Part shown: positions 2,836 through 45,911 of the stretch, piece after piece
Layout of the letters: each line of letters opens with the position of its first letter
Position numbering within the stretch: position 1 is the first letter of the stretch
NCBI GenBank assembly: GCA_031414595.1
Contig: JANNVX010000029.1
Span: 1 to 49,905 of the forward strand
Source of the DNA: Deinococcales bacterium
GTDB lineage: Bacteria > Deinococcota > Deinococci > Deinococcales > JAAFIG01
DNA length: 49,905 nt
Direction of reading: 5' to 3'
The notes under the pieces: model-generated
The model's database searches: none
What the model was told of the DNA's origin: nothing
The model's input: only the letters and a program-made list of their open reading frames with translations
Program-made: the position numbers and the translations under genes

Positions 2836-4161
2836 TTACACTTTAGCGCGTTGTTGCCACATCATTTGTACCGCTTCGCGCACCATCGTAATGCTGCGGC
2901 TGCCATGCACACCCGGCGGAGCGATTAATCGTTCAATGCCAATTCGAGTCGCTTCGGCAGCACGGCGGGCGGGCTGGGAAACACTGCGAACCTCGCCAGC
3001 CAAGCCAACTTCGCCAAAAACCGCAATGCCCTCAGGAATTGGTTTCATCATTACCGCGCTGTAGACTGCTAAAGCAATGGCTAAATCGAGACCGGGGTCA
3101 ATCACTTTTAAGCCACCCGCTAAATTGACATAGATGTCCAGTCCACCAAGGCTTAGCTCTAAGCGGCGCTCGAGAACCGCCAGAACCACATCCACCCTTC
3201 TGGCATCTAAGCCAACTGCCACCCGCTTCGGGGCTGGATATGGGGTTTTTGCCGCCAAGGCTTGAACCTCGAGCAGCAATGGGCGTTGCCCATCCATGGT
3301 GGCAGCAATCACACTGCCCGGCGCACCGACTGGACGTTCGGCAAGGAACGCGGCAGACGGGTTATCCACTGCCACCAAACCAGCTTCCTGCATATCAAAA
3401 ACACCCAGTTCGCCAACATTGCCAAAACGGTTTTTAATCGAGCGCAGCATTCGGTAATTGCCAACACTCTCGAGCATCAACACTGCATCCACAATATGCT
3501 CCATCACTTTTGGTCCTGCCACCGAACCATCTTTGGTGACATGTCCGACCAAAACCATACTGCTGCCGGTTTCTTTAGCAGCGCGGGTCAGTTGGGCTGT
3601 AGCTTCACGCACTTGGGCAAGACCACCGGGCGAACCAGTCTCGCCAGCTTGAATGGTTTGGATTGAATCCACAATGCAAAGCCGTGGTTTTTCTGCCTCG
3701 AGAAGCGCAGAAATCCCTTCTGAAGTGATGTCGCGGGTCATTAGGATGTTTCCAGTTACACCAAGTCGGTCAGCCCGTAAGCGCACTTGCTCGAGCGATT
3801 CTTCGCCAGCCACATACAAAACAGATTCGCCAGCTTCGGCTAAATGATGTGCCACTTGTAATAAAAGCGTACTTTTACCAATCCCCGGTTCGCCACCAAG
3901 CAGCACCACTCCACCAGCCACCCAACCGCCACCCAAAACCCGATCCAATTCCGAAACACCACTCGAGACCCGAGGCTCAGATTGGGTTGCCACATCGCCA
4001 AGGCGCACCAAGGCGGCTCGAGGTAAAGCAAGGCGTTTAGCGGGGCTGTTAGAAATCTCTTCAAAACTATTCCAGGCGCTGCACGTTGGGCAACGCCCGA
4101 GGCTTTTTACAGCGGTGTAGCCACATGAACTGCATTTGAATTGGGTGGTGACTCGAGCCAT
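2836..4161 (-). CDS. radA: DNA repair protein RadA/Sms
   Basis: C4 zinc finger, Walker [15 protein letters not shown] motif, Lon-like C-terminus. Confidence 0.97.
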
Positions 4162-4505: not shown

Positions 4506-5576
4506 ATGCCACACAATACCGATGATGTCCGAATCAAAGCCATTCACGAAGTTTCTCCGCCGATGCACATCATGCGAGAATTTCCAATCTCAGAAAGCGC
4601 GGCTGCCACCGTTTTTGATTCGCGCCAAGCCTCTCACCGAATACTGCATGGCATGGATGACCGCCTTCTGGTGGTGGTTGGACCGTGTTCGATTCACGAC
4701 ACCAAGGCAGCCCTCGAGTACGCAGGTAAGTTGCTTACGCTAAAAAAGAAGCTACAAGCCGACCTTGAAATTGTGATGCGGGTTTATTTTGAAAAACCGC
4801 GTACCACAGTTGGTTGGAAAGGTTTAATCAACGACCCCTTGCTCGATGGCAGCTTTGAAATTAACCAAGGCTTACGGGTGGCAAGGGACTTGCTGCTCGA
4901 GATTAACGAATTAGGAATTCCAGCCGCAACCGAATACTTGGATACAATTTCGCCGCAGTATATAGCGGATTTAATCGCATGGGGAGCAATCGGAGCGCGT
5001 ACCACCGAAAGCCAAATTCATCGTGAGCTTGCCAGTGGCTTAAGTTGCCCAGTTGGATTTAAGAACGGCACGGATGGTAACATTAAAATTGCCATAGATG
5101 CGATTAAATCTTCTTCACAGCCGCATAACTTCTTGTCTGTCACCAAAGCTGGACACAGCGCCATTGTTTCTACCGGTGGCAACGAGGATTGTCATGTGAT
5201 TTTGCGCGGTGGCAAAACCCCTAATTATGATGCTGACCATGTAGAAGCGGCTTGTACAGAAATCAGTAAATCAGGCTTGGCTGCCCGAATCATGATTGAT
5301 TGTTCACACGGCAACTCGAGTAAAAAACACGAAAATCAAATTCCAGTGGCTGCCGATGTTGGTGTACAAATTGCTGGCGGGGACACTAGAATTGTCGGCG
5401 TGATGCTCGAGAGCCACTTAAAAGCTGGTCGGCAGGATTTAATCCCTGGTACGCCTCTCGAGTACGGCGTTTCGATTACCGATGCCTGTATTGCTTGGGA
5501 AGAAACGGTTTTGGTTCTCGAGAATTTAGCTTCGGCAGTGCGAATGCGGCGGGTGCAGCAAGTCAGCGCTAAGTAA
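4506..5576 (+). CDS. aroG: DAHP synthase, class I-alpha
   Basis: GPCSIHD, RVYFEKPRTTVGWKG, GAIGARTTESQIHR, DCSHGNS, YGVSITDAC; RBS AAGGAG. Confidence 0.96.
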   Translation: MPHNTDDVRIKAIHEVSPPMHIMREFPISESAAATVFDSRQASHRILHGMDDRLLVVVGPCSIHDTKAALEYAGKLLTLKKKLQADLEIVMRVYFEKPRTTVGWKGLINDPLLDGSFEINQGLRVARDLLLEINELGIPAATEYLDTISPQYIADLIAWGAIGARTTESQIHRELASGLSCPVGFKNGTDGNIKIAIDAIKSSSQPHNFLSVTKAGHSAIVSTGGNEDCHVILRGGKTPNYDADHVEAACTEISKSGLAARIMIDCSHGNSSKKHENQIPVAADVGVQIAGGDTRIVGVMLESHLKAGRQDLIPGTPLEYGVSITDACIAWEETVLVLENLASAVRMRRVQQVSAK

Positions 5577-5578
5577 AA

Positions 5579-5606
5579 GCAATGACCAAGAACCCTTGGT
5601 CATTGC
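5579..5606. terminator. Hairpin between convergent genes
   Basis: GCAATGACCAAG-AACC-CTTGGTCATTGC, perfect 12-bp stem. Confidence 0.7.
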
Positions 5607-5613
5607 CTCATTT

Positions 5614-5943
5614 TTATTTCTTTTTGACGACTTTTTTCTTGGGCTTATCAAAGCCAACCGCCCATTCGCCTACACTGTCTAGCAATGGCTTTAAGGCTTC
5701 TCCTTTTTCAGTCAGGCTGTACTCGACCCTTGGTGGCACTTCTGGGAAGGCTTGCCGATTGACCACACCTTGCTCCTCGAGTTCTTTTAGTCGTTCGGAA
5801 AGGGTACGCGGACTGACCTTTAAGACTTTTTCCAGCGTGGTAAAACGCGCAGGACCTTTTTGTAGGGTCTCGAGGATGATAAATGTGCCTTTGCGTCCTA
5901 TGACGCGCAGTGCCATTTCGGTAGCTGACATAATTTTTTTCAT
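5614..5943 (-). CDS. HxlR-family winged-helix regulator
   Basis: RF..LE....VSPRTLSERLKELE..G.V.R..FPEVPPRVEYSLTEKG. Confidence 0.93.
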   Translation of the reverse strand: MKKIMSATEMALRVIGRKGTFIILETLQKGPARFTTLEKVLKVSPRTLSERLKELEEQGVVNRQAFPEVPPRVEYSLTEKGEALKPLLDSVGEWAVGFDKPKKKVVKKK

Positions 5944-6073
5944 CTCTGTTACTTTACTCTTTTAATTCTGACAAAATCCTTAATACTTTTATTTTATACT
6001 ATAATCGATTAAACTCATACTTTGCGTCAGGGTTTTTGCTTACTGGCTAAAAATCACGTTATGCTCTTTAATT

Positions 6074-6913
6074 ATGCGAATCGCTTGGTTGATGTTAGAT
6101 GGGGTTGGCTTACGGACAACTGAAGATTTTCTTGGTAATCCATTTTATCAACTCGAGTTACCGACCCTCAAAAAGCTGGGGATTAGCACACCTACAGTCA
6201 CATTTCAACCAGATTTGACCACCAAGCCGATAGATGCCAATTTAGATGTCCAAGGCTTACCGCAAAGTGGCACAGGTCAAACCACAATACTGACCGGAAT
6301 AAACGCAAGTAAGGCACTAGGATTTCATCACGGACCTTGGGTTAGCCCAAGTTTAGTCCCGATTCTCGAGCAGAATATCCTTAAACAAATTGGCGATGTC
6401 CGTTTGGCTAATTTTTACCCTGCACGCTACTTAGAATCGCTGGCTTCTGGGAAAACAAAACTGAATGCGATTGCCACGAGTGCTTTAAGTGCTGGGGCGA
6501 GGCTCGAGAGCGAATCTGGACTGGGAATTAGTCCTTTGCTGCGCCCACTTGAAGAAAACAGCAACCTAGAGCAAATCAAAAATTGGGCAAAGGCATTTAT
6601 GAATTCCCAAGCCAAAATCACGATTTTTGATTTGTGGTGGACAGACAGTCTTGGGCATGAAATGAACTTAACAGAAGCCCAAGCCTTGGCATTTCGCCTC
6701 GAGCAGTTTTGCAAGTATTGTCTTGCGTATCAAGACCAAAAAACGCTTTTTTTAATCACCAGCGACCACGGCAACTTCGAGGATTTACGGGTCAAGACCC
6801 ACACCAGAAATCCTGTGCCACTTGTGGCGGTTGGACAAGGCGCAAACCACTTTGCCCAAGTTTTGAGCTTGGTCGACATCGCCAAGGCAGTTTTAGCAGC
6901 CATGAAGGTTTAA
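6074..6913 (+). CDS. Metalloenzyme (alkaline phosphatase/iPGM superfamily)
   Basis: LDGVG, PQSGTGQT, DSLGH, TSDHGN, HTRNPVP. Confidence 0.85.
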   Translation: MRIAWLMLDGVGLRTTEDFLGNPFYQLELPTLKKLGISTPTVTFQPDLTTKPIDANLDVQGLPQSGTGQTTILTGINASKALGFHHGPWVSPSLVPILEQNILKQIGDVRLANFYPARYLESLASGKTKLNAIATSALSAGARLESESGLGISPLLRPLEENSNLEQIKNWAKAFMNSQAKITIFDLWWTDSLGHEMNLTEAQALAFRLEQFCKYCLAYQDQKTLFLITSDHGNFEDLRVKTHTRNPVPLVAVGQGANHFAQVLSLVDIAKAVLAAMKV

Positions 6914-7057
6914 GTATTTGTCTGGCTATGAACTTTGTACAACCTAGACTCGAACCTAACGGAAGGGTACATAATAAGAATAGTTCGGCAGTTAGAAAAA
7001 CCCGCCGAAGCTAATGGAAACGACCACCGAAGGTCAAAGAATTGTTGTACTATTGTT

Positions 7058-7174
7058 CTAGCACCGAGTGCAAACTGTTGGCGGGAAAATAGCACCAGTA
7101 TCATCGGCAACCGCGAAACCACCGAGAGCGAAACCCAAGACCATAACCACCAACGCACGAATCATCTTTTTCAT
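7058..7174 (-). CDS. Small secreted propeptide (38 aa), candidate signalling peptide
   Basis: RBS GGAGGA then MKKMIRALVVMVLGFALGGFAVA|DDTGAIFPPTVCTRC*; Sec signal with A-X-A site; absent from the ORF track. Confidence 0.8.
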   Translation of the reverse strand: MKKMIRALVVMVLGFALGGFAVADDTGAIFPPTVCTRC

Positions 7175-7224
7175 ATTTGTTCCTCCACTTGGTAAAGTAA
7201 AAGCAGTTTAAGGAAACCAATAAT

Positions 7225-9228
7225 ATGAACCGTGTAGTTGCCTATAATCAAAATCCACAGGTCGTGCAGTCTCAACCGACTGCACGACCTGAGTTGGAGC
7301 TTCGTTCGCTCATCCAAGCAGGAAAATACCGTGACGCACTCGATTCTTATAAAAATTTAGTTGTACCCACTTCAGAAGCAACTCGTTTGGCAGGGCAGGC
7401 GGAATGGGGGCAAGGCAACTTTTTACAGGCGGCTATCTACTTAAATCGTGCTTGTATTCAAGGTGAATACGGGGCTGGCGTTGATATTTTGCGACTCCAA
7501 GTGCTGCAAAATCAATTGGATGATATTGATTCAAAAATAATTAGTATTGACCAGTCCAGCTTAAAAGATTTAGACAAAATACAATTGCAAATAGTGCAGG
7601 GTGAAGTTGCGCTTAAAAAGAACAAATTAGGCATTGCAAAACGCTGTTTTCTTGACGCATGGATTGCTGCCAATTCACTTGCAAATAGTGGTTCATTGGT
7701 TCAATCAATCGCTAGAAATCTTTTTGTCGTTTGTCATGCTACTGCATGTGATAGTGAATCAATCGGCTACCTCAATCAGGCTCTTGTGGGCGCAAAAGGC
7801 ATTTGGATTCCGTATTTGCGACTTTCAAAAGCACAAGCCCATCTAATGCTAGGGGATTTTGTTAATTGTCAGCAAGACCTAAACGAGATTGCAAACGAAT
7901 CTATCAACAATGTCCAGTTTTCTACAAATTATGCCACTGTTCAAGGACTATTTGCGTTTCTAGGAAACGAATTTCAACCTGCCATAGAAAAGTTAGGACT
8001 TGCGCTTCAAGAACTCAAAGCTGCAAATTCTAATACCTCATCAATTACTCGAGTCCAGTATTACCTGGTTGGAATGCTGATACAACAAAAATACTTTAAC
8101 CAAGCTCGCGGACAATTGTGTCAGCTTGAAGTCCATGCCCAAACCCGTGGCGAAAGAGCCATGTTTGATCAACGTAAAGGGCAGTATTTAGCGGCTCAAG
8201 GTTTATTTGCCGATGCCGTCGAGCATTTAGAAATGGCTCGAGAAACCTTTTTTGATCTCGAGTGGCGCAGGGAACTTGGTTGGACGTTGCTGCAACTGGC
8301 ACATGTTCATTTGAATCTGGGCAATCCACAAAAAGCTGGTTTACTGCTCGAGTCGGTCACTGACATCATCAATATCGTCGAAAATGCGGCATTTCTTGAA
8401 CTCGAGCGTCGCTTTATTGGCGACCTTAAACCATTAACCAAAATTGCTTCTAGTTATGGTTTACATGCCCTAACCCATAATCAACCACTTGCCCAGCCAA
8501 TTATGTCACGTCCTGTTCAGACTTCGATTGCTTTTCATAGTTTTGGAGTCACAACCTTGTCGTTAAATGGTCAGCCGGTCAGCTGCAAGTTAAATCGGGC
8601 TTTTGCAGTCATGGCGTATTTGCTGATGTACCCACAAAGTTCGCTCGAGAAGATTTTATCAGAAGTCTTTGAGGATTCTAAAGATGTGGCAGCTGCCAAA
8701 AACTATTTTCATACGGCTCGCTATGAACTCAATCGGGCTTTTAACTGGATTAGTTTTACTTATGACCGAATTACCAAAACCTATTCAGTAGACACTGGCG
8801 ATGTGCCAATGCAGTTTGATTATCACGAGATTATACGACTACTACACGCCCCTTCGGAGAATGAGTTCTACGATGCCCTCGAGATTTGCCGTGGTCCTTT
8901 TATGCCCGGCTTTGAAGGGCAGTGGATCGAGGAGGTGCGTGCTAACGTGGAATGGTTATTGGTTCGTAGTGGCTTAAAATTGGTGCAAGAAATGTATGAA
9001 TCTGGCGATTTTCAGGCGTGTCGGCGTTTGACCGAACGGTTACTCAAAGTCGAACCATTGGATGAATCTTTGAACGAATTATTGGTACGGGCAACAAGGG
9101 AAGTCGAAGGGGCATTGGCGAGCCGTAAAGCCATGAGTATGGTGGAATCTCAGTTTTTACTAGAAGTTGGTGAATTGCCGCCAACCTTGGCACAGTTAAA
9201 AAGTGAAATGAAGTTTAGAATGAATTAG
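7225..9228 (+). CDS. TPR-repeat protein with C-terminal SARP-type wHTH/BTAD module
   Basis: Helical TPR-like repeats over about 400 aa, then 'FG...L..NG', 'AYLL', 'F...RYEL', 'GPFMPG...W..E.R', 'L.VEPLDE' typical of BTAD regulators. Confidence 0.8.
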   Translation: MNRVVAYNQNPQVVQSQPTARPELELRSLIQAGKYRDALDSYKNLVVPTSEATRLAGQAEWGQGNFLQAAIYLNRACIQGEYGAGVDILRLQVLQNQLDDIDSKIISIDQSSLKDLDKIQLQIVQGEVALKKNKLGIAKRCFLDAWIAANSLANSGSLVQSIARNLFVVCHATACDSESIGYLNQALVGAKGIWIPYLRLSKAQAHLMLGDFVNCQQDLNEIANESINNVQFSTNYATVQGLFAFLGNEFQPAIEKLGLALQELKAANSNTSSITRVQYYLVGMLIQQKYFNQARGQLCQLEVHAQTRGERAMFDQRKGQYLAAQGLFADAVEHLEMARETFFDLEWRRELGWTLLQLAHVHLNLGNPQKAGLLLESVTDIINIVENAAFLELERRFIGDLKPLTKIASSYGLHALTHNQPLAQPIMSRPVQTSIAFHSFGVTTLSLNGQPVSCKLNRAFAVMAYLLMYPQSSLEKILSEVFEDSKDVAAAKNYFHTARYELNRAFNWISFTYDRITKTYSVDTGDVPMQFDYHEIIRLLHAPSENEFYDALEICRGPFMPGFEGQWIEEVRANVEWLLVRSGLKLVQEMYESGDFQACRRLTERLLKVEPLDESLNELLVRATREVEGALASRKAMSMVESQFLLEVGELPPTLAQLKSEMKFRMN

Positions 9229-9240
9229 TCTCGAGTTTTT

Positions 9241-10239
9241 ATGCCCAATGCTGAGGAAACCATGATCATCAATCGTCCCATGCAAGTCGTTATACTTGCA
9301 CTCGATCCCATCATTCTAAAACCAGAGATGCTCGAATTAGAATCTATTGGCATGGCGTTTTTTCTTGCCACTCATCCCGAAGAAGTGATTGGTTATTGTG
9401 CTAATGGGCTAATAGATGGGGTGGTTTTAAGTCCAGCCGAGACCCACACGATTCATTTAATCCAAACAATCAAGTCAGACCCACACACCAAAGTGCCAAT
9501 CATGGTGATGCTGGGGGCAGAACAACTCGACTTAGAAGAAACAATGCTGATGCATGGCGCAGATGATGTGATCACTGCCCCGTGGAATACGCGTGGTATT
9601 CGGACTCGGATTGAACGAATGTGCCGTAAGCATTTGCAAAGTTTGGGCATCGAAGATCAATATGCGATTATGAAATCACTGACCCAAACTGTCGAAAAAC
9701 ACGATCCTTACACCGCCCAACACGTCGAACGACTGCGTTTCTTGTCTGGGCATGTGGCAATTCAAATGGGTCGAACTGCCCGAGAAGTCGCCTCGATTCG
9801 AGCGGCTGGTTTACTGCATGACATTGGTAAAATTGCCATTCCTGGAACCATTTTAAGAAAACCGACTGCCTTAAGTCTAGAAGAATGGGCAATAATGCGT
9901 TTGCATCCGGTTCATGGGGCAGAAATTGCACTTAGTTTACCAGTTGGCGATGAAGTCGCCCCAATGGTACGTTCGCATCATGAACGTTGGGATGGAACTG
10001 GATATCCAGACGGAAAAGCCAACACCGATATTCCTCTTGGTGGACGAATTGTGTCGGTGGTGGATGCCTTTGACGCAATGACCTCGACCCGTCCGTACAG
10101 AGCAGCCTTATCCGTTGAAGAAGCCAGAAACCGTTTGGAGCGCGGGGCTGGGTCTCAATTTGATCCTTCGGTGGTTCATTCTTTGTTGAGTCTAGGTCCT
10201 GGAATGCTTAAAAAACAATTTCAATTGCCACAGAACTGA
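9241..10239 (+). CDS. HD-GYP phosphodiesterase with degenerate receiver domain
   Basis: DPYT..H..R, LLHDIGK, HHERWDGTGYPDG, DAFDAMTS.RPYR; N-terminal REC-like 'GADDVITAP' lacks the usual Lys of the KP motif. Confidence 0.9.
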   Translation: MPNAEETMIINRPMQVVILALDPIILKPEMLELESIGMAFFLATHPEEVIGYCANGLIDGVVLSPAETHTIHLIQTIKSDPHTKVPIMVMLGAEQLDLEETMLMHGADDVITAPWNTRGIRTRIERMCRKHLQSLGIEDQYAIMKSLTQTVEKHDPYTAQHVERLRFLSGHVAIQMGRTAREVASIRAAGLLHDIGKIAIPGTILRKPTALSLEEWAIMRLHPVHGAEIALSLPVGDEVAPMVRSHHERWDGTGYPDGKANTDIPLGGRIVSVVDAFDAMTSTRPYRAALSVEEARNRLERGAGSQFDPSVVHSLLSLGPGMLKKQFQLPQN

Positions 10240-10241
10240 TG

Positions 10242-10880
10242 CTAATGGCGTTTGCTGGTGCTGTAACGCAGGATTTGCCAATACATTTTGATTCGCCTAG
10301 CAACACCAGCCACCAAGCCTAGTTTTTGTTCTTTAATCACTTGGGAAACCCCGACCAAATCAATATACTCGAGCCGTAAATTTTCCGCAGCGATTTGGTC
10401 GTTGATCGCAATTTCGATGCCGTAACCGGCAGTTTCTAAGTTTTTAGCAGCTAAAATCGTGGCTCTTGGAATAACCCGTTGTCCGCTCCATTGCGGGGTG
10501 GCGCGGTTGCCAAAATCGGTGATGATTCCGCCGCCGACAAATAATCCTGCAGTCGTGTCGGCTCTTTTTTGCTCTACAGGCTCGAGCATCGCCTTTAAGT
10601 GCCGTACCTCGAGTTTTAAGAGGTCAGCATCTAAAAGCAGTACATAGGCTGTGCTGGCTTTTAATGCCCCTGCCTTGACCGCACCGCCCTTACCTCGGTT
10701 GGGATGAAGTTCCAGCACTTCTGCACCAGCAGTTCTAGCAAGTTGGGCGGTTTCGTCGCTGCTGCCGTCAGAAATCACAAGAATATTTTTGAAACCTGCT
10801 TCGCTTGCCACTTTGACCACGTTAGCAATGGTCTTGGCTTCGTTCAGGGCTGGAATCAAAACAGTGATGTCCAAGGTCAT
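10242..10880 (-). CDS. Glycosyltransferase family 2
   Basis: IPALNE, DGSSD, NRGKG, DAD. Confidence 0.9.
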   Translation of the reverse strand: MTLDITVLIPALNEAKTIANVVKVASEAGFKNILVISDGSSDETAQLARTAGAEVLELHPNRGKGGAVKAGALKASTAYVLLLDADLLKLEVRHLKAMLEPVEQKRADTTAGLFVGGGIITDFGNRATPQWSGQRVIPRATILAAKNLETAGYGIEIAINDQIAAENLRLEYIDLVGVSQVIKEQKLGLVAGVARRIKMYWQILRYSTSKRH

Positions 10881-11935
10881 TGCCCTAATCTACTGATGTC
10901 TTGGACCGTCACCAAGAGAATAAAGACCATCACAAAAATAAATCCCGCAAAATTGATTTTCTCTTCTTGCCCCGGAGCAAATGGTTTACGGCGCAAAGCC
11001 ACAATACTCGAGAGTAGAATTCTGCCACCGTCTAAGCCCGGAATTGGCAACAAGTTAAAGAGACCCAAAGATAAATTGATAATTCCAGCTAGAAATAAAA
11101 CTGGGAAAAACCCTTGCTGGGCAACTTGGGCAGTCGCATTGACTGCCCCGACAGGTCCTTGAAGGTTGTCGTCGCGTTGAAAGGTAACGGTGCGAAAAAT
11201 TCCGCCAATGATGGCTTCTATAAATTGGGGAATGCCCCCAATTAGAGTATTGGCACTTTGGCTAAAGGCTTCGGTAACAGAAATGGCTTCAAAACGGGTT
11301 TCAAATCCGATGGCAACCCCAAATTTAGGACGGGTTTGCCCGGGAAAAGTGGTTGGCGACCACTCAAAAGTAATATCTAGGGTTTGGCTATCGCGCTGCA
11401 CAGTAAAAGTGCGCTGACCATTGGTTTGTAGATTTTTGCGTACTTCTTCGGTCTCCTTGACTGATTTACCGTTAATTTTAAGTAAAAAGTCTTGGCTGCG
11501 AAATCCAGCTTTTTCGGCTTGTGAGGCGGGTTGTACCCCCAACTGAATCCGCTCGAGGATTACGGATTTACCTTGTCCGAGAAAAGCAAAACCAACAATC
11601 ACGATGGCAAGAATTACATTGGAAAGCGGTCCTGCAAACAGAATCGCAAATTTACCCCAATAGCCAAGTTTGGCAAAGCCGTGGCTGGGTGGGATTGGTG
11701 TACCCACAGCATCAAATTCGGTTGGGGCTAATCCGTCTATATCAACATAACCACCAATCGGAAACAAAGAAATGCGCCATTCGGTGTTGCGCCATTCACG
11801 CCGCCAGATAATTGGACCCAAACCGATAGAAAAGGCTTTGACTGCTACGCCTTGGGCGCGAGCGGCAGCATAATGCGCCAGTTCATGCACAAAAACCGCG
11901 ATATTAACAATAATCAACCAAACAAGAATGCCCAC
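10877..11935 (-). CDS. rseP: RseP-like M50 membrane metalloprotease with PDZ domain
   Basis: HELAH, PIGGYV, AGP..N, NLLPIPGLDGG. Confidence 0.9.
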   Translation of the reverse strand: MGILVWLIIVNIAVFVHELAHYAAARAQGVAVKAFSIGLGPIIWRREWRNTEWRISLFPIGGYVDIDGLAPTEFDAVGTPIPPSHGFAKLGYWGKFAILFAGPLSNVILAIVIVGFAFLGQGKSVILERIQLGVQPASQAEKAGFRSQDFLLKINGKSVKETEEVRKNLQTNGQRTFTVQRDSQTLDITFEWSPTTFPGQTRPKFGVAIGFETRFEAISVTEAFSQSANTLIGGIPQFIEAIIGGIFRTVTFQRDDNLQGPVGAVNATAQVAQQGFFPVLFLAGIINLSLGLFNLLPIPGLDGGRILLSSIVALRRKPFAPGQEEKINFAGFIFVMVFILLVTVQDISRLGQ

Positions 11936-13314: not shown

Positions 13315-14631
13315 ATGAATATCCTTGATGCTCGAGCCGCCTTAGACAAAGGTGAAGTCAGCAGTTTGCAGTTGGTCGAAGCTGCCCTTGAACAAAACAA
13401 CCAGAATACTGACCTGAATATCTTTGCCCATTTAGCTGCTAAAGAAGCCCTTGAAGCCGCCAAAGTTGCCGATACAACTGCCAAAAAAGGCGTACTGCAT
13501 GGTATCCCAGTCACGATTAAAGATTTATTTAATGTTGCCAATATGCCTACCCTCGCTGGGACACACGCCGAGTTACCTCAAGAATTCCAAAACCCAGTTG
13601 ACCATGCTCGAGCCGTGCAGCATTTAATCAATGCTGGTGCAATTATTTTAGGCAAAACCAATATGCACGAAATCGCCCTCGGCATTACTGGCGAAAACCT
13701 TTGGACTGGCGATGTTAAAAATCCGCTTGACCCAAACCGTCAAGCAGGCGGCTCGAGCAGTGGCAGTGCGGCAGCTGTAGCTGCCACAATTGGACTGGCG
13801 AGTTTAGGGTCAGACACAGGCGGTTCGGTGCGAATTCCAGCTAGTTTTTGTGGGATTGTTGGTTTTAAGCCGAGCTTTGGCTGGATTCCTTTAGATGGTG
13901 TGCTGCCTTTAAGCATGACTTGTGACCATGCTGGGGTGCTGACCAATTCTGTGACTGATGCCCACACCATGCTCGAGGTTTTGGCACACCGAAATTTGCC
14001 ATTGCGACATTTGAACGGGTTAGGCGGTATTCGCATTGGGGTGCTTAGGGATTGGCTTGAGGGTCGGCTTGGCGCAACAGTGCGTCAAGACTTTGAACGG
14101 TTAATCGAGCAACTGCGCGAGGCTGGGGCAGAAGTGCTTGAAGTAACAAGCCAACATCTTGAACTTGCCAGTCCATGTTACACCACCATCGTTCGAGCCG
14201 AAGCCGCTTATATTCACCGTACCGCCTTAAACACCAAGCCCGAAGGTTTCTCGAGTCTGATCAGACCCGCGCTTGAAGATGGGGTTACAATTACCGCAAC
14301 GGCGTATTTAGAAGCTCGAGCCAAACGGCGTTTGGTGCGAACTGGACTTGAAACAACCTTGAATCAGGTGGATGCGCTGATTTTGCCAGCCGCACCTTTG
14401 GCTGCGCCAATTCGCGGTACACAAGAAGTGATGCTCGAGTCGGGAATGCGCTCACACCGCAGTGCCTTTATTGATTTGACCATCCCCTTTAGTTTGGTGG
14501 GGTTGCCTACGCTGTCTTTGCCCTTTACCAAAGAATCTGGTTTACCAGTCGGATTACAAATTGTCGCGGCTCGAGGCGACGACAGCACCGCTTTAGAGTT
14601 AGGCTGGTGGCTTGAGCGCAACCGTTTATGA
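13315..14631 (+). CDS. Amidase signature family protein
   Basis: [41 protein letters not shown]. Confidence 0.93.
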
Positions 14632-15399
14632 TTTTTTAGTGCCTTTGGTTTTTGGGTTGGCTTTGGTTTTCTTAACTGCCTTGGTTTTAGTGGCAGCTTT
14701 TTTAACAGCCTTGGTCTTACTCGAGGGCAGCGAATGACTTTTCATCAGTTCGATACGGGCAGCAATCTCGGTTTGCAGTCTTGTGGCTTCTTGTTCAAGA
14801 CGGTCTTGGGCATCGTCGAGTTCAAAACGTAAACGCATCACTTCTTCGACCCCCGCTAAATTAACCCCGAGTTCTTGGGTTAAGCGCTTAATGTCTTTTA
14901 GGTGCAGTACATCGCGCTCTGAGTACAAACGTGTTTTACCACTCGAACGCTTTGGGCGAATCAGGTTTTTACGCTCATATAAGCGCAGGGTCTGCGGGTG
15001 CATGTCCACCAATTCAGCTGCCACACTAATCACAAAAACCCCTTTGTCTTTGGGGTCGTCGGAAAGCAGGTTGGCGCTTTGGGCTGTAAATTCGGCTCTG
15101 ATTGCCCCCTCGAGACGATAAATTTCACCCTCAAATTGACTTTGAACCTCATCGAGTTCAAAACGCAATTTCATAATCTCCTCTACCCCAGCCAAATTAA
15201 CCCCAAGTTCTTGGGTTAAGCGGCGAATTTCGCGCAGGTATTCGATGTCACGCTCGGAGTACAAACGGGTTTTGCCGCTCGAGCGTCCGGGGCGAATTAA
15301 GCCTTTGCGTTCGTATAAACGCAAGGTTTGCGGGTGCATTTCGACAAGTTCGGCTGCCACGCTAATAACGTACACTGGACGGTCTTTGGCATCGGACAC
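14626..15399 (-). CDS. hspR: Heat-shock repressor HspR, fused tandem MerR domains
   Basis: Two near-identical [38 protein letters not shown] domains; Lys-rich tail. Confidence 0.9.
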
Positions 15400-21860: not shown

Positions 21861-22230
21861 GGGCGCGTACTTGGTTTCGACAGGGATCGCTGAAGGTGTG
21901 GTTGCGAGCCGCAGATGGTGGTTGGCTGCGAAAAAATCCACCAAGCCTTTAACTGGCACAAATGTTTTGAAAATGAACGCTAATAACGTTCTTTCCCTCG
22001 CTGCTTAAGTCAGCAAAGCCGCTTAGAGACCCGGCAGTTGGTGTCTAACCCGCTTAAAATAGACTGCTAGTTTTGGGAATGCCTGATACCCAAATACGAA
22101 ATAAATCAGGATGCTGCAACAACAACCTGCCTTTGGGTTCGTTTCGCATAAGAACAGTACGAAGGCTACGCTCGTAGATGCCCATTGGAAGGGTTTTTGG
22201 ACGAGGGTTCGACCCCCTCCGCGTCCACCA
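21861..22230 (+). ncRNA. ssrA: tmRNA
   Basis: 5' GGGCGCG..GGTTTCGAC; 3' GGGTTCGACCCCCTCCGCGTCCACCA with G3:U pair; tag ORF 21955-22008 GTNVLKMNANNVLSLAA* after TAACT. Confidence 0.95.
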
Positions 22231-28786: not shown

Positions 28787-29992
28787 TCAAGCGCCCTTCT
28801 TACTGCGTTCATAGCGTTGAGACATGGCTTGTTTGCGGGTGACATTGGCATTGGTGACTACGTTTTCCTCGAGTGCATCGAGTAATGCCATTTCACTGGC
28901 AAGGGCTGCACTTTTTGGCATGGCTTGCAACATCACATTCTGGCGTTTGATTTCGGCAGCCGCTTCTCGGACATTTCCAGCATCAATCATTCCAGCCACC
29001 ACCAATTTGCTACGAGCCGTAATCAGTAAAGCAGCCGCTTCTTGCACCTCTAAATTCACACCCAGTTCTAGGTACTGGCTTTTGGAGATTGAAAAACTCA
29101 GTTTTTGGACATGTCGTGTGCCGTTGGTGTCGGTGTATGCCAAGCGCAAACCAAGAATTTCGGGGAATTGCACTATCTCGGCGTTGACCTCGAGTTTAAG
29201 CACCACCTCGAGTTGCTGACCAAAGCGCAAGTTATCGAGTTTATAGCGTCCAGTTTCGGTTTTTTCAAAGTCGTTTAAGACATCCAGCACTTTCAGACCG
29301 AGATTTGGCTCGAATCCTAAACTGACCATTCTGCCCAAAGTGGTCAGTAAGCCTTTGAGTTCGACCGCAAAAATTTCTGGGAGTTGTTTTGGGTTATGAA
29401 TAAAGTGGTAATTGCCGTCTCCGTTGTTGGCTATTCCCTCAAGTAAATCTTCGTTAAAGTCCTCACCCACACCCATGGTGCTGGTGCTGATGCCTTTTTT
29501 GGCTAAACCCGCGACTTGCTTAAAAATTTCTTCGGGTCGGGTTTCACCTTGGTTGGCTTGACCATCGGACAAGAGCAGGACACGGTTTAAGCGCCCAATT
29601 TCAAGGCTGCTGGCGGCTTGATTTGCCCCCTCGAGCCACCCACCATGCAGATTGGTACTGCCAGCCGTTTCTATTTGGTCGATCAACTGATTAAAGTTTG
29701 CATTTGGGCGCACATACTGACTGGCTACAATAGTCTGCACTGAATCATCAAAAATCGTGAGGCTGACTTTATCGTTCGGTGTCAATTGCGAAAGAGCATA
29801 TTTGGCGGCGGCTTTGGCATACTCGAGCCGCAAGCCTTCCATTGAGCCACTGCGGTCAATTACCAAGGCGAGGTTAAGCGGCGGACGTTGGGTCGAGTTT
29901 ACGGGGGGCTGTGGACTACGAATCCGAATCAGTAACTCGAGAATTCCTGCGTTGGGTTTACTGGACAAAATGCTGATTTGAGGTTGATTCAT
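28787..29992 (-). CDS. VWA domain protein (YfbK-like)
   Basis: MIDAS DRSGS, TNL..G, LLSDGQAN.G. Confidence 0.9.
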   Translation of the reverse strand: MNQPQISILSSKPNAGILELLIRIRSPQPPVNSTQRPPLNLALVIDRSGSMEGLRLEYAKAAAKYALSQLTPNDKVSLTIFDDSVQTIVASQYVRPNANFNQLIDQIETAGSTNLHGGWLEGANQAASSLEIGRLNRVLLLSDGQANQGETRPEEIFKQVAGLAKKGISTSTMGVGEDFNEDLLEGIANNGDGNYHFIHNPKQLPEIFAVELKGLLTTLGRMVSLGFEPNLGLKVLDVLNDFEKTETGRYKLDNLRFGQQLEVVLKLEVNAEIVQFPEILGLRLAYTDTNGTRHVQKLSFSISKSQYLELGVNLEVQEAAALLITARSKLVVAGMIDAGNVREAAAEIKRQNVMLQAMPKSAALASEMALLDALEENVVTNANVTRKQAMSQRYERSKKGA

Positions 29993-30794: not shown

Positions 30795-32207
30795 TCACCA
30801 AGAGGTGTCTAAAACCTCGGGCAGCGCTCCGCTTTTGGTCAGGTGACTCCAAACCAAGGTACAGGCGGGGTCAAAATGCGTTCCGGCTCGAGCCATGATA
30901 AAGGTTCGAGCCGCCTCATGGGTCATCGGTTCGCGGTAACTGCGCCGACTGGTCAGGGCATCATAGACATCTGCAATAGCGGTGATTCGGGCAAGCAGTG
31001 GAATGGTTTCGCCTTTGAGTTGGTCTGGATAGCCAGTGCCATCGTAACGCTCGTGATGGTGGCGAATAATGCTCAGTTCTTCGGGTAAAAAACCATTGGC
31101 TCGAGCGTATTCATAACCGATTATCGGGTGTTGTTCGATTAACGTGCGCTCCTCTGGCTCGAGGTTACTTGGTTTATTGAGGATGTTTTGTGGAATCTCG
31201 AGTTTTCCAAGGTCGTGAACCCAACCGCCTTGCGCCAATGCCCTCAGCTTTTCGGGTTTTAAGCCCAAGGCTTGCCCAATCTGAACCGCGTGCAGGGCGA
31301 CCCGCTTGTTGTGACCTGCGGTGTAAGAATCATGGATTTCGGTGGCACGAATCAGGTTTTGTAAATTAGGGTCAATCACTGACTCGAGCCGAGCCATCGG
31401 GTTGGCATTCCAGATGCCAGCTAAAGAAGCCGCCAATGCGCCGCGTGTGTATTGGCGCAGTAAACCCCAAATCATTGTGCCAACCGCAATCAGCAACACC
31501 CCATGATAAAACCACCACGATAAATCCCAGAGTGTTGAGGTGCTGATGATGAGTTGAGTGGTGGCAATCCATAAAGCGCAGTAGACCAGTGCCACTTGCA
31601 ACGGTGCATGGGTAAATAAGTACGAGCGCCAGTAACGCCAAGCTGCCAGCAACGCCAGCCCAATTGTCAAGCCACTTAATGGCAAGTGTAAGGGGTTTTC
31701 ATCGAGCGGAACCCATTCCACTAAGCTAGGCAGCAACAAAAGTCCTGCACACAAGACCAACAAAAAACCAGTCCATGCCCAAACCAACCAACCCGAGGCT
31801 TTTGCCAAATCACGCAGCAAAGGCGCGTCAGATGGAAAACTCGAGGAAAGCAGCCACAAAGCTGATAACACCACACTCATTTCGGCGGTAATTCCCGAGA
31901 CGCGGTTGTCGGGCAGTACAAAATTGGGGGTCGAGAAACCATGTGTGCCAAAAGCAATCCCCAAAGAAATAAACGCCAAAGAAACCAAAACAACCTGTAA
32001 GTTGCGTAACCTCGAGCCAATCAGCCCAATAAAAACCGCTATCCCAGCTGATAGTAGACTGGTGATGCTGACCAAGTAAAAATGTTGCCCGACCCCGTGT
32101 AAATGTACGTCAGCGCGGGGTAACAAGCGCAACAAGCCATAAATCAAGAGAGGGACAAGCATACCCAACCACAACGGATTGACAACCAAACTAGAATTGC
32201 GATTCAT
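30795..32207 (-). CDS. Membrane-bound HD-GYP phosphodiesterase
   Basis: About 8 TM helices, HDLGK, HHERYDGTGYP, ADVYDALTS.R.YR. Confidence 0.9.
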   Translation of the reverse strand: MNRNSSLVVNPLWLGMLVPLLIYGLLRLLPRADVHLHGVGQHFYLVSITSLLSAGIAVFIGLIGSRLRNLQVVLVSLAFISLGIAFGTHGFSTPNFVLPDNRVSGITAEMSVVLSALWLLSSSFPSDAPLLRDLAKASGWLVWAWTGFLLVLCAGLLLLPSLVEWVPLDENPLHLPLSGLTIGLALLAAWRYWRSYLFTHAPLQVALVYCALWIATTQLIISTSTLWDLSWWFYHGVLLIAVGTMIWGLLRQYTRGALAASLAGIWNANPMARLESVIDPNLQNLIRATEIHDSYTAGHNKRVALHAVQIGQALGLKPEKLRALAQGGWVHDLGKLEIPQNILNKPSNLEPEERTLIEQHPIIGYEYARANGFLPEELSIIRHHHERYDGTGYPDQLKGETIPLLARITAIADVYDALTSRRSYREPMTHEAARTFIMARAGTHFDPACTLVWSHLTKSGALPEVLDTSW

Positions 32208-32293
32208 ACCTTTTTATACGCGCTTGGAGACTTGTTTGGATACTTAAGACTTTTTCCCTTCATCATAAAGCCTGAACTTGTTAGAATCTAAAA

Positions 32294-33097
32294 ATGATCG
32301 TTGTTAAAGTTGGCGGAAGCCTAGGAATTGATTATGATGCGGTGTGTAACGATATAGCCGACCTATGGCTCGAGGGCAAAAAACTTGTCTTGGTACATGG
32401 TGGCAGTGCCGAAACCAACCGCATTGCCGAATTGCTCGGGCATCCGCCTAAATTTGTGACCAGCCCAAGTGGATACACCAGTCGGTTTACTGACCGCGAA
32501 ACCTTAGAAATTTTTGAGATGGTGTACTGCGGCAAACAAAACAAAGGCATTGTCGAACGACTGCAACGCCGTGGAGTCAATGCCGTCGGATTATCTGGAC
32601 TGGACGGACGGATTTTTGAGGGTAAACACAAAGATTCGGTTCGGGCAGTCGAAAACGGAAAAGTGAAAATCTTACGCGGCGACCACACTGGAACAGTCGA
32701 AAAAGTCAATGGCGCATTGCTGCATTTACTCTTGGACAACGGGTATTTACCAGTCCTGACCCCACCCGCTTCGAGTTTTGAGGGTGTTGCCATCAATGTA
32801 GACGGAGACCGAGCCGCCGCCGCCCTCGCCACCGAATTAAAAGCCGAAGCCTTGCTGCTTTTATCTAATGTCCCCGGACTGCTACGCAACTTTCGAGACG
32901 AAAGCAGTTTAATTAAACATATCCCAGCTAACGATGTAGAAAGTTACCTCGAGTTTGCCCAAGACCGCATGAAGAAAAAAGTGCTTGGTGCAGCCGAAGC
33001 GGTACAGGGTGGTTGCAAAAGGGTTATTTTTGGTGATGCACGACTCGAGAAACCAGTCACGAAAGCACTCGAGGGCATGGGGACGGTTGTTTCTTAG
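32294..33097 (+). CDS. lysZ: [LysW]-aminoadipate kinase
   Basis: MIVVKVGG, VHGG, SGYTSR.TD, NVDGDRAAA, RMKKKVLGA. Confidence 0.92.
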   Translation: MIVVKVGGSLGIDYDAVCNDIADLWLEGKKLVLVHGGSAETNRIAELLGHPPKFVTSPSGYTSRFTDRETLEIFEMVYCGKQNKGIVERLQRRGVNAVGLSGLDGRIFEGKHKDSVRAVENGKVKILRGDHTGTVEKVNGALLHLLLDNGYLPVLTPPASSFEGVAINVDGDRAAAALATELKAEALLLLSNVPGLLRNFRDESSLIKHIPANDVESYLEFAQDRMKKKVLGAAEAVQGGCKRVIFGDARLEKPVTKALEGMGTVVS

Positions 33098-38985: not shown

Positions 38986-39348
38986 TTACTCTCCCAACCC
39001 GTTCTTGGTCATGATTCGCAATGCTGCTCGAGATTGTTCTAAAGCATCACCCTCGAGCTTCCCGTAATACCCACGCACCCGCGAAGCGTCAACACTGGTG
39101 ATATGGTCAAAAAGAATAGTGCAGGCTTCGCTAAGGTTTGCTTCTCCTGCAACAAGTTGTACGCGAAGTACCCCTTGGTGTTTTGTGGTCGTGGTAATTG
39201 GGACGACCACAAGCATTGGGGATTCGAGTTTTTGGTGTGAACTTGGATCATCAATCAGCAATGCAGGACGTTCCCCCGTTTGTTCATGTCCTTTGGGTTT
39301 GCGTTCAGGGAAGGCAACGCGAATCACTTGTCCAAAAACACTATTCAT
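38986..39348 (-). CDS. MazF/PemK-family toxin
   Basis: G.V..V.FP....GHEQ.G.RPAL, VVPITT, D.I.SVD..R. Confidence 0.9.
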   Translation of the reverse strand: MNSVFGQVIRVAFPERKPKGHEQTGERPALLIDDPSSHQKLESPMLVVVPITTTTKHQGVLRVQLVAGEANLSEACTILFDHITSVDASRVRGYYGKLEGDALEQSRAALRIMTKNGLGE

Positions 39349-39764
39349 GTGTCTCTCTCAAGTAAGACAATACCTTTACCCTGCACGTATCTAGCGGGTT
39401 TTGCGGCTGCTTTCATACTTTCATGCCAGCGTTTTAGTTCCTCGGGCGGTACGTCCTTCTCGAGTTTGTGAATGGCTTGCATGGTGTCTTGTCCTGCCAT
39501 ATCGAGCCATGCCTTAGATTCCTCGTCCATTTCCTCGAGCGGTTCTTCTATCACCTCGAGCAAGTCGTTAGGCGTGACTGGCTTACCAGTAAGCCGTGCA
39601 AGCGCAACAAGCAGCGCATTCAAGGTATTAAACCGTACCCCGTCAACTTCACCCGATGCCAGCTTGTACAATGTGGTACGGCTTACTTCGGGGCATTCTT
39701 TCTCGAGACGATAGACACTTAAACCATTTGCGTCAAGACAATCTTTTAACTTTAGTTTAATCAT
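39345..39764 (-). CDS. Xre HTH protein with acidic extension, probable antitoxin
   Basis: Xre HTH '..L...GLSVY.L....VSRTTLY.L..G...GVRF.TL..L..AL...TG..VT..DLLE'; ATGA overlap with the toxin; start may be 39803. Confidence 0.8.
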   Translation of the reverse strand: MIKLKLKDCLDANGLSVYRLEKECPEVSRTTLYKLASGEVDGVRFNTLNALLVALARLTGKPVTPNDLLEVIEEPLEEMDEESKAWLDMAGQDTMQAIHKLEKDVPPEELKRWHESMKAAAKPARYVQGKGIVLLERDT

Positions 39765-39893
39765 AAGAGGTGCAAGTATAGTTTGACTGTTTATACTTTG
39801 CATAGTTTAATTTTAGTTATACTATATAAGCACTGAAGGCGGCATTTCTGCGGCAAACACTAAAAACAGCGCTTTCGGCATAAACTAAAAAAT

Positions 39894-39925
39894 AAGAATC
39901 CCCCGCTAATTAGCGGGGGATTCTT
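39894..39925. terminator. Hairpin, likely the original tRNA-Ala terminator
   Basis: AAGAATCCCCCGCTAATTAGCGGGGGATTCTT perfect palindrome directly beyond the att copy. Confidence 0.8.
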
Positions 39926-39970
39926 GGTGGAGATGAGGGGATTTGAACCCCTGACCTCTTGAGTGCGATT
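39925..39970 (-). repeat. att site (duplicated 3' 46 bp of tRNA-Ala)
   Basis: TGGTGGAGATGAGGGGATTTGAACCCCTGACCTCTTGAGTGCGATT, identical to 47522-47567. Confidence 0.95.
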
Positions 39971-40097
39971 TCGTAATTAACATATTTACTGATTTAACTT
40001 GACTTCACTTCTCTAACTGTATTGTTTGTCAAATACGCGCTTATTTTGCTCGAGTTGTTTATTCTTGTCACTGCATTTATATCCAAGTCACTTGACC

Positions 40098-40118
40098 CGT
40101 TCCGCATCTGTTCCGCAT
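40098..40118 (+). repeat. Putative integrase arm-type site (left)
   Basis: CGTTCCGCATCTGTTCCGCAT, identical at 47429-47449. Confidence 0.75.
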
Positions 40119-40201
40119 ATTCTTAACCTCAAGAAATGACGTTAAGAAAAGAAAAGGTATATGAAGTTGTGTAAATAAACAAGAAATGATAAACTTTTTA
40201 T

Positions 40202-40699
40202 ATGAGCGTTCCACGATTTGCCAACAATAGCCTTGGTCTGGCAATGGCATGTGCAGTTGTGGAAATTCGTAACACACTTTGTCGTCCCTTATGCACCAAA
40301 AATACGAATGACTCCTTAACTCTTGCTATAACTTGCGCGGTTATGGAGCATCAAACCTTTCGATTACCTCGAGACAAGGGATACGAAGCCTTAGTGAAAA
40401 AATTAAAGTCTAAAAGTTTGTCCATGTCTTTCGTTTGGCAAAAACTCCGACGAAACATGGGGGCAAATGGCGTGACGTGGGGAGAAGCTAATGTAGCTCA
40501 GTTCAATTGCGCTTTGGACGCATTGCTTTCCGAAATACTAAAAGCAATGCGTTTAGCTATTCACCTAAATTTTTTGCAGTTATTAAATTTTCATCTTCTG
40601 AAATTGAATAATGATTCTCGAGTAATTGAAAAACTACTGCACCCCCCACCGCTCGAGTATTACCCACAAATACAAACCACTTGCGCCCCCAACGTCTGA
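40202..40699 (+). CDS. Hypothetical protein (element cargo)
   Basis: 165-codon ORF, AT-rich, ends ...HPPPLEYYPQIQTTCAPNV. Confidence 0.55.
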   Translation: MSVPRFANNSLGLAMACAVVEIRNTLCRPLCTKNTNDSLTLAITCAVMEHQTFRLPRDKGYEALVKKLKSKSLSMSFVWQKLRRNMGANGVTWGEANVAQFNCALDALLSEILKAMRLAIHLNFLQLLNFHLLKLNNDSRVIEKLLHPPPLEYYPQIQTTCAPNV

Positions 40700-40717
40700 G
40701 AACACGGCTTTAGTCCT

Positions 40718-41020
40718 GTGTTCTCACCTCGAGCATTAACCGCTCGAGCGTCCCGTTTGGGGTGGTCTTTTATAAATAATTCTTTGAATCCGCAAGCAAT
40801 CACGGTCAAATCCTTTTTTGGTGTTTCAGACGTTGCCCAACGTTGGGAAGTACATCAAAACTTTGTTTACAACCTCATCAAAAGTGGTGAGCTTCCATGC
40901 CTGAAAATTGGCAACCCCGGAAGCAAACGCCCCGTTATCCGTATCCCTCTTGACTCACTCGAGGCATGGGAAGCGGCTCAACTTTCCAACAGGGTTAAAA
41001 ATGCACAACTTCGCCAATGA
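40718..41020 (+). CDS. Excisionase-like HTH protein
   Basis: 'FF.V.DVA.RW.V....VY.LI.SGELP..KIG......IRIP...LEAW'; true start uncertain, probably downstream. Confidence 0.8.
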   Translation: MFSPRALTARASRLGWSFINNSLNPQAITVKSFFGVSDVAQRWEVHQNFVYNLIKSGELPCLKIGNPGSKRPVIRIPLDSLEAWEAAQLSNRVKNAQLRQ

Positions 41021-43408: not shown

Positions 43409-43814
43409 AGTGGACACGTACCAGCCAAGACGATTACAGAAAAAAACTGAAAAACCCCTAGAGTCGTCAACTCAAAAGACTCAAAAGCCCGAAAATACCC
43501 CTTTTGAGTCTTTTGAGTTAGCCCGAGAGGGGGTATTTACAAATTTTTATTCTGATGCAAGTCTCGAGCAGCCAAGCCCAAAACCAGCCGAACAGCCCAA
43601 ACTACCCCTTTATCTCACCCCTGAGTTTCGCCCTAAACCTTTGCCCTTACACCTTGAGAAGTTCGCTCGAGCAGCCAGAACGGGCAAACTCCCCGTACCT
43701 CTTGCTGACCTTGTGGTGAGTCATGTGGGATGGTGGTTCGTAACTTCCGATGCTCGAGAACTCGAAGCCCTCGAGGTATTGCACAAGAAGCACTACGGCA
43801 CGGTACAAGCGTGA
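43398..43814 (+). CDS. Hypothetical protein overlapping iteron-like repeats
   Basis: Overlaps both neighbours, consistent with translational coupling. Confidence 0.5.
   Translation: MVSEVDTYQPRRLQKKTEKPLESSTQKTQKPENTPFESFELAREGVFTNFYSDASLEQPSPKPAEQPKLPLYLTPEFRPKPLPLHLEKFARAARTGKLPVPLADLVVSHVGWWFVTSDARELEALEVLHKKHYGTVQA
43470..43538. repeat. Iteron-like inverted repeats, candidate replication origin
   Basis: ACTCAAAAGACTCAAAAG (43470-43487) and its exact reverse complement (43501-43518); extra AAATACCCC/GGGGTATTT pair. Confidence 0.7.
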
Positions 43815-44476: not shown

Positions 44477-44478
44477 AT

Positions 44479-45081: not shown

Positions 45082-45116
45082 ATGTTTTGAACCTCAAGGA
45101 CGCTTTCAAAATATAC

Positions 45117-45154: not shown

Positions 45155-45164
45155 CAGGGGTCAT

Positions 45165-45840: not shown

Positions 45841-45911
45841 GGGACTCCTTACAATTTGGGGATTCTCGAGAACGCCTTACTTTGAGAGGTGGTGCGTTCT
45901 TGAGTGCTTAT

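Follow-up and report, generated by a model that had tools for sequence, protein, structure and literature searches.

A locus at positions 7,058 to 10,239 of a 49,905-nucleotide stretch of DNA from a Deinococcales bacterium (contig JANNVX010000029.1 of assembly GCA_031414595.1; the whole stretch is called the window below) belongs to a family that probably represents an RRNPP-like system of peptide and receptor whose output module differs; its copy in the window precedes a predicted c-di-GMP-degrading enzyme. Three genes make up the locus: a propeptide gene of 38 residues with an ATG start (7058..7174, minus strand), recognized as an open reading frame (ORF) and by conservation and profile rank; a receptor-activator gene of 667 residues (7225..9228, plus strand), recognized by its ORF, Pfam matches and predicted structure; and a gene for a pseudo-receiver and HD-GYP phosphodiesterase (9262..10239, plus strand), linked to the system only in the window's clade. 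It is considered likely that the peptide binds the receptor, and the full reading as peptide communication between cells is slightly favoured. A preliminary description, made from the DNA letters alone, had placed a 38-residue ORF with a strong ribosome-binding site at 7174-7058, head-to-head with the 667-residue ORF. These positions are confirmed, with a Shine-Dalgarno GGAGG (7182..7186, minus strand) 7 nt upstream of the propeptide start and 50 bp between the two starts. In what follows, L-numbers denote related loci, G000 the window's own genome, C its contigs, and f3 and f5 family-level groups.

On sequence evidence, the 38-codon ORF is a real conserved gene, as its changes are biased towards synonymous ones, its features are conserved and it ranks high in a held-out profile search. 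With the stop codon counted, it differs from L005 by 4 synonymous and 1 non-synonymous codon changes and from L006 by 7 and 3, and its start, length, Pro-Pro, both Cys and stop are conserved in L005-L009. A hidden Markov model (HMM) was built from 69 peptides of other loci, with the window, L005, L006 and the in-genome paralog excluded and the same-genus L007-L009 included; of the genome's 28,245 small ATG ORFs, only the paralog's peptide scored above the window propeptide (rank 2, E 7.5e-5). By inspection and an in-house heuristic, the N-terminus has a basic N-region, a hydrophobic core and an A-V-A site without a lipobox, giving a predicted 23-residue Sec/signal peptidase I signal peptide that ends in A-V-A (7106..7174, minus strand). 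The predicted mature 15-mer (7061..7105, minus strand) contains a G-x-x-hydrophobic-P-P core common to L006-L010 and a terminal CxxC common to L005-L009. The propeptide has no Pfam family, and NCBIfam gave two weak matches far below cut-off. No sigma-70 consensus promoter was found in 6800-7500; a candidate TANNNT -10 of the peptide gene (7205..7210, minus strand), which may act as its promoter element, overlaps the regulator's Shine-Dalgarno sequence on the opposite strand and recurs at the equivalent position in L005-L009.

The association of regulator and propeptide extends far beyond the window. Relatives of the regulator (match E 1e-15 or better) occur in 83 of 364 Deinococcota genomes, among them 17 of the 18 other genomes of the window's family-level group, and in 0 of 23 genomes of group f3. 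From 121 listed matches 119 were taken, two contig-end fragments being left out, and the removal of L119, which gave no match in the analysis script, and of eight loci with less than 400 bp upstream gave 110 loci. A locus was counted as paired when a divergent ORF of 28-60 codons, starting with ATG and showing features of a signal peptide, lay within 600 bp. Such an ORF lies beside 74 of 98 full-type loci (window locus and paralog included; L064 doubtful), whose receptors have about 630-670 residues, and beside all 12 short-type loci, which lack most of BTAD. Thus, the small secreted ORFs anticipated in the flanks of homologs are present at 86 of 110 loci, a count that includes related genomes and is therefore not one of independent cases. 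In other flank positions the same filter fired at 1/110, 1/97 and 2/97, and next to 60 of 1813 genes of the window's genome; only seven of those 60 have a good Shine-Dalgarno sequence, and three of the seven are BTAD regulators, two from the regulator family itself. Moreover, pairing persists through differing gene neighbourhoods and four family-level groups. The genome survey and pairing counts support the earlier suggestion of a distinct Deinococcota family of TPR-SARP regulator and exported propeptide.

Of the best 150 clusters (50% identity) in a profile search, well over 100 were near full length. As to range beyond Deinococcota, the named members of ten low-scoring clusters are Deinococcus (organism given for two of the clusters), and named Deinococcus plasmid records also carry family members. 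ESM Atlas look-alikes, considered by receptor only, come from Chloroflexota, Bacillota, Pseudomonadota and Actinomycetota. Metagenome scans with the family alignment and with the single protein gave 147 and 19 pattern matches, none of them confirmed, and annotated phages gave no family match, viral contigs being outside the scan. The short-type receptors (L105-L121, 12 loci of group f5) have about 550 residues, TPR-wHTH with a truncated BTAD, and their propeptides of 33-35 residues with a 7-residue end tail are encoded 320-500 bp upstream, with a repeated TGGGA motif before the peptide gene. At L003 the peptide side is replaced by genes for exported proteins and a duplicated fragment of the regulator C-terminus (87-2954 and 3001-3183). 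The in-genome paralog (L122; G000:C78:7882-12634) has about 650 residues and is paired with a divergent propeptide of its own (41 residues). A TANNNT at this locus is preceded by a triple 11-bp repeat, and the peptide gene is followed by two predicted lipoprotein genes; paralogs within one genome carry differing peptides. Additionally, two AfsR-like regulators with N-terminal SARP (1185 and 1111 residues, G000:C39:25938-36177) are flanked by three small Sec-type peptide genes with related tails (29563-29694, 32250-32387 and 32542-32685). The peptide HMM also found small signal-peptide ORFs at C88:169244-169360, C82:56486-56617, C69:11886-12017 and C21:2044-2160, each adjoining an ORF of 537-951 residues and only the first reaching E <0.01; their arrangement suggests more peptide-receptor pairs in the window's genome.

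As judged from its sequence and predicted model, the regulator joins a TPR sensor to a SARP (wHTH-BTAD) activator at the C-terminus. TPR_14 and BTAD of Pfam both match above cut-off, and the AlphaFold2 model (100-sequence alignment; mean predicted local distance difference test 91.9) consists of helical hairpins at residues 22-417, a winged helix-turn-helix (wHTH) at 435-531 and BTAD at 532-664, which upholds the N-terminal TPR and C-terminal wHTH/BTAD halves noted earlier. The TPR sensor domain, with its Rap/NprR/MalT domain III-like predicted fold, corresponds to 7288..8475 and the SARP module, assigned by its AfsR match and Pfam BTAD, to 8527..9216, both on the plus strand. Since no transmembrane or signal segment is evident, the regulator is taken as cytoplasmic. 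The best structural match of the TPR domain model is a Rap-pheromone complex (Z 29.7, 334 residues aligned, root-mean-square deviation 3.9), with NprR at Z 27.7 and AimR at Z 24.2, and the family profile matches NprR at E 4.9e-10; an RRNPP-like TPR fold is thus supported on the predicted model, MalT domain III being tied with Rap. The model of the C-terminal module (residues 431-667) matches AfsR with Z 18.1 over 232 residues (root-mean-square deviation 4.2) and EmbR with Z 16.2. Because the identities of these structural matches are 9-18% overall and 9-14% for the RRNPP receptors, the matches show fold and not function. A Foldseek search with the entire model gave mostly eukaryotic TPR proteins, phmmer with the C-terminal 240 residues found 0 matches in PDB, and the NCBIfam AfsR model scored 13.8 bits against a cut-off of 1430. 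Complex prediction was carried out with the TPR of L010 (residues 8-405) and its 33-residue mature region, as the window's 15-mer is below the size limit, and returned a score of 0.14 and a mark of 0.32.

Evidence for a link between peptide and receptor comes from their joint divergence. Residues 131-275 of the TPR domain (7615..8049, plus strand) form a hypervariable segment, a candidate specificity region by divergence and covariation: in the same-genus L007-L009 the segment is 27-32% identical, as against 88-90% for BTAD. Across 27 disjoint pairs, mature-peptide identity tracks that of TPR 131-275 (rho 0.71, p 3e-5), with rho 0.65 for residues 26-130, 0.40 for 276-420 and 0.01 for BTAD, in agreement with the earlier suggestion of a variable specificity region in the TPR half. 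The partial rho for TPR 131-275 is 0.73 after removal of C-terminal and signal-peptide identity; without the window's clade (n 23) the two values are 0.62 and 0.66. In a test for block replacement of the TPR part, fourfold sites were saturated along the entire regulator gene against L007-L009.

The peptides themselves share recognizable traits. Mature regions mostly start with D/N/E-P/G and are Gly-rich (36% of the first ten positions), Pro is the second residue in 44 of 73, and the shortest have 8-10 residues and no Cys. Similarity in 17 tailed pairs is higher over the first ten mature residues (0.69) than over the tails (0.43), which probably places the message right behind the cleavage site. 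L010, the sister locus of the window's clade, has a Cys-free G-T-F-P-P unit in three copies; L011, L112, L115 and L118 carry two pheromone-like copies per propeptide, and L043, L052 and L061 two peptide genes each. Propeptide duplications are reported for RRNPPA systems in the available text of two papers (PMC9765709, PMC11343458). A terminal CxxC is present in only 8 of 73 peptides (six of the window's genus, L030 and L036; three changes on the tree) and any two Cys in 17 of 73 (five changes). With these counts and the Cys-free shortest peptides, the disulfide loop of the preliminary description does not hold as a family trait, and CxxC was rejected as such. The small proteins of D. deserti in the main text of PMC4007540 and PMC11596967, supplements being outside the search, are apparently not family peptides.

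At the level of the family, the promoters of the peptide genes suggest control by the SARP module. In the 55 bp before 61 leadered peptide genes, autocorrelation has a single peak at lag 11 (0.333 vs 0.263 +/- 0.009), and 7-of-8 lag-11 repeats precede 14 of the 61 against 0.8 in shuffled sequence, with none at other lags or farther upstream. An 11-bp period positioned eight bases before the -10 is given as the SARP hallmark in the accessible parts of PMC10972967 and PMC11301090, the latter stating the 8-bp spacing for AfsR. A strict genome scan found five sites against none in one shuffle, one of them at the paralog's peptide promoter with 8-bp spacing. Judged by these motifs, autoinduction is supported for the family and not for the window copy, since the window's clade is without lag-11 repeats. 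At the window locus the candidate peptide promoter overlaps the start of the receptor gene, no SARP box was seen by eye before the HD-GYP gene in this clade, and the peptide genes of L010-L015 have no Shine-Dalgarno sequence and look leaderless.

The window's genome also holds two small stand-alone SARP genes (G000:C114:35436-36296 and 41863-42744). The second carries a triple 11-bp repeat resembling the paralog's box, and a cascade through this gene is therefore possible. Intergenic triple 11-bp repeats before TANNNT occur at C37:70619, C90:19416, C98:44967, C49:7556, C86:44537 and C82:50009, most of them upstream of predicted exported proteins and three with a GTGACGC-like unit; these three may belong to a SARP regulon, the scan background being high (22 sites vs 12).

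The third gene of the locus encodes a protein matching Pfam HD_5 (E 6.5e-39), with Response_reg below cut-off. Its HD, HHERWDG (HHExxDG) and GYP motifs are intact, and it is a predicted c-di-GMP phosphodiesterase. The position which we take, from the REC motif, to be that of the phospho-acceptor Asp holds Ser in the window and Gly or Glu in seven aligned homologs, and the earlier label of an HD-GYP protein with a degenerate receiver domain is retained. Its start is revised: the longest frame opens at 9241 (332 residues), 12 bp after the regulator gene as first described, and 9262 is the likelier start, leaving a gap of 33 bp, because GAGGA precedes it and an equivalent GTG led by a Shine-Dalgarno sequence is present in L007 and L009. 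Of 95 downstream frames (the longest at each locus within about 1.5 kb, with L005 excluded as a near duplicate), nine hold an HD-GYP gene behind the receptor, every one of them in the window's clade, and HD-GYP output as a family trait was accordingly rejected. HD-GYP-like sequence was found by tblastn near L043, L066, L068 and at least four short-type loci. EAL genes follow three receptors among the 95 downstream frames, and GGDEF genes (three) and subtilases (four) occur among 90 frames on the peptide side; on a named Deinococcus plasmid, not counted separately, genes for a subtilase and an EAL protein run divergently from the regulator. By gene content, c-di-GMP genes recur without defining the system. 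An enrichment of secreted proteins behind peptide genes (14/32 vs 166/489) was considered and found unconvincing.

A working scheme for a two-gene unit of peptide communication can be drawn from these results. The propeptide would be exported through Sec and cut by signal peptidase I, as predicted, and the released peptide would be re-imported by an Opp/Dpp-type transporter; the window's genome has 15 SBP_bac_5 matches and a DsbB. In the cytoplasm the peptide would bind the TPR groove of the regulator, where fold and covariation suggest that residues ~90-300 set specificity, and binding would switch the C-terminal SARP module. This module may recognize the 11-bp-period direct repeats just upstream of the -10 and recruit RNA polymerase as AfsR does; where the repeats precede the peptide gene, as in many members, an autoinduction loop would result. 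In most of the family the message would be the first 8-10 residues past the cleavage site, and in the window's clade the G-x-x-hydrophobic-P-P core, with the CxxC most likely a periplasmic disulfide cap guarding the C-terminus. Only in this clade would the HD-GYP gene, co-transcribed with or regulated beside the receptor, tie the signal to c-di-GMP turnover.

Several points weigh against this scheme. In the pairing data, 24 of 98 full-type loci fail the strict peptide filter and about 17 have nothing by eye; a family-type peptide lies outside the filter in L026, L041, L046, L053 and L102 and downstream in L029, and L094 looks broken. The filter was modified once the first loci had been inspected, and one counted match (L064) appears spurious. 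The 27 covariation pairs were hand-picked from the tree, with heuristic cleavage sites of which seven were set by hand, and one peptide dropped. Signal-peptide identity also tracks TPR 131-275 (partial rho 0.68), so that part of the correlation is due to physical linkage. Tied with Rap as the best fold is MalT domain III (Z 29.2 over 342 residues), which senses a sugar and is the top match of a wide fold search. By the lag-11 score, the repeats are absent at the window locus and its clade, and a relaxed genome scan found 22 sites against 12 in shuffled sequence. Binding proteins of the Opp type are widespread in bacteria (present in 11 of 14 controls). Furthermore, Deinococcota have an outer membrane, so the 15-mer, once in the periplasm, may be retained in the cell.

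This last point leads to the strongest alternative, a private signal, in which the peptide freed into the periplasm is re-imported at once and serves to time a delay, or to gauge Sec export or leakage through the outer membrane instead of cell density. The pairing, fold and covariation results fit it equally well, and a 1.5-kDa peptide exceeds the usual porin limits of the diderm envelope. It is nevertheless judged rather unlikely. The fast diversification of peptide and TPR between species, the tandem copies and the peptide-less receptors are more easily understood through kin signalling and eavesdropping, both discussed for RRNPPA in the available text of PMC9765709, and the frequent Pro at position 2 suggests protection from aminopeptidases.

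There is a smaller chance that the peptide is an output and not the ligand: a MalT-like TPR would sense a small molecule or protein, and the SARP would turn on a secreted effector, as AfsR does with afsS. The MalT fold match, the SARP-like boxes facing the peptide gene and the receptors without a visible peptide (~17/98) are all compatible with this. However, the mature peptide covaries with the TPR middle and not with wHTH or BTAD when signal-peptide identity is controlled, and a Gly-rich peptide of 8-10 residues has little scope as an effector. Very improbable, in turn, is the proposal that the CxxC of the window's clade is the working part, reporting periplasmic redox state or scavenging metal, with only one form sensed. 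Neither Cys varies in L004-L009, in contrast to the N-terminal residues, Cys pairs arose repeatedly on the tree, and the genome has a DsbB; yet L010 keeps the PP core without Cys, and L031, likewise Cys-free, agrees with its Cys-tailed relatives in the first nine residues. A chance ORF or chance neighbour, for which only the background firing of the heuristic in the genome speaks, is already largely refuted by the synonymous-biased conservation, the HMM rank and the pairing.

Returning to the peptide-receptor system, its nearest relatives in design are the RRNPP(A) systems of Bacillota (Rap-Phr, NprR-NprX, PlcR-PapR and AimR-AimP). Both have an adjacent small propeptide, here predicted to be Sec-exported, a cytoplasmic TPR receptor of the same predicted fold, variable peptide codes, tandem peptide copies and peptide-less receptors. 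The 38-residue propeptide lies within the 10-100 residues given in the available text on RRNPP_detector (PMC10075063), and it is the receptor's direct neighbour, as at the other paired loci. The Deinococcal family differs in its diderm phylum, in the conserved peptide part, which is found mostly behind the cleavage site and not at the chain end, and in receptor size and effector type and position. Its full-type receptors exceed the 250-500 residues of RRNPP_detector, as stated in the same text, and would therefore be excluded by that tool; their effector is a C-terminal wHTH-BTAD, whereas RRNPPA receptors have an N-terminal HTH or three-helix bundle according to the accessible part of PMC9765709. 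The family is thus probably a variant of the RRNPP kind, working like RRNPP and differing in size and effector, where likeness means profile and fold similarity.

With the SARPs (AfsR, ActII-ORF4 and EmbR) it shares the wHTH-BTAD module and, at the peptide promoters of relatives, 11-bp-period repeats about 8 bp before the -10. In the SARPs covered by the available text of PMC10972967, however, the module is N-terminal, and large members continue with NB-ARC and then TPR. The Deinococcal regulator has TPR first, no ATPase and a secreted propeptide as partner. MalT, a STAND protein with an ATPase domain and a LuxR-type HTH, shares the sensor fold and the order of sensor before DNA-binding domain, whereas the Deinococcal regulator has no ATPase domain, a SARP in place of the LuxR-type HTH, and a peptide partner. 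The window's genome also encodes an ATPase-TPR-wHTH-BTAD protein (C7:24693-27521), its ATPase read from an N-terminal P-loop motif. Quorum sensing in the same phylum is represented by DqsIR of Deinococcus radiodurans, given in PMC10778927 as the sole quorum-sensing regulator reported for that species. DqsR is a response regulator, and its signal is an acyl-homoserine lactone and not a gene-encoded peptide. No description of the TPR-SARP/propeptide family was found in the literature searched, which largely left subscription journals outside, and the word Deinococcus is absent from the main text of two RRNPP surveys (PMC10075063, PMC9765709).

If the proposal is true, cytoplasmic peptide-pheromone receptors, described from Bacillota, extend to a diderm phylum, a SARP activator gains a defined peptide switch, and the question arises how a peptide signal crosses the outer membrane or stays inside it. 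A wider proposal is offered tentatively, as somewhat doubtful: a phylum-wide, gene-encoded peptide language of Deinococcota, independent of Bacillota, in which Rap/MalT-like TPR and SARP would act across two membranes and read a free N-terminus, with varied outputs (HD-GYP, GGDEF, EAL, subtilases and lipoproteins), several pairs per genome including STAND-type regulators, and a disulfide-capped signal in the window's clade. The family is readily testable, as the ligands are synthetic peptides of 8-15 residues and members occur in cultured Deinococcus species. Moreover, dozens of natural receptor-peptide codes could act as orthogonal inducible switches.

Some traits of the DNA itself were also followed. 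The lower GC noticed in the TPR half is real (0.38-0.41 vs 0.47; 0.29 vs 0.44 at third codon positions) and is a clade trait, being found in all eight printed members of the window's clade and only 28 of 92 family members. CTCGAG is indeed absent from 6698 to 8048; genome-wide this motif occurs every 193 bp on average, roughly 20-fold above a uniform expectation. As 54 of 23,115 gaps are as long (2.2% of bases), and a second gap of 1138 bp spans the HD-GYP gene, its absence was rejected as a weak marker of a variable region. A structured region 3' of the peptide gene, between convergent genes (6914..7057, minus strand; z -3.77, 0/200 shuffles), is a likely terminator, its hairpin being kept in L005-L007 and partly in L009. 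A 14-bp inverted repeat (7258..7291) within the low-confidence 5' end of the regulator gene is present in L005, altered in L006 and missing in L007-L009. Rfam gave no match in 5500-11000.

Elsewhere in the window, positions 39345-47597 are occupied by an integrated mobile element, labelled by eye, with primase- or helicase-like ORFs at 40908-43408 and an integrase-like ORF (46206-47420) that adjoins tRNA-Ala (47522-47597). Positions 30795-32207 encode a second HD-GYP protein, which has a domain crossing the membrane several times, and 14626-15399 a protein with two tandem HspR-like MerR domains, also recognized by eye. A tmRNA gene is located at 21861-22230.

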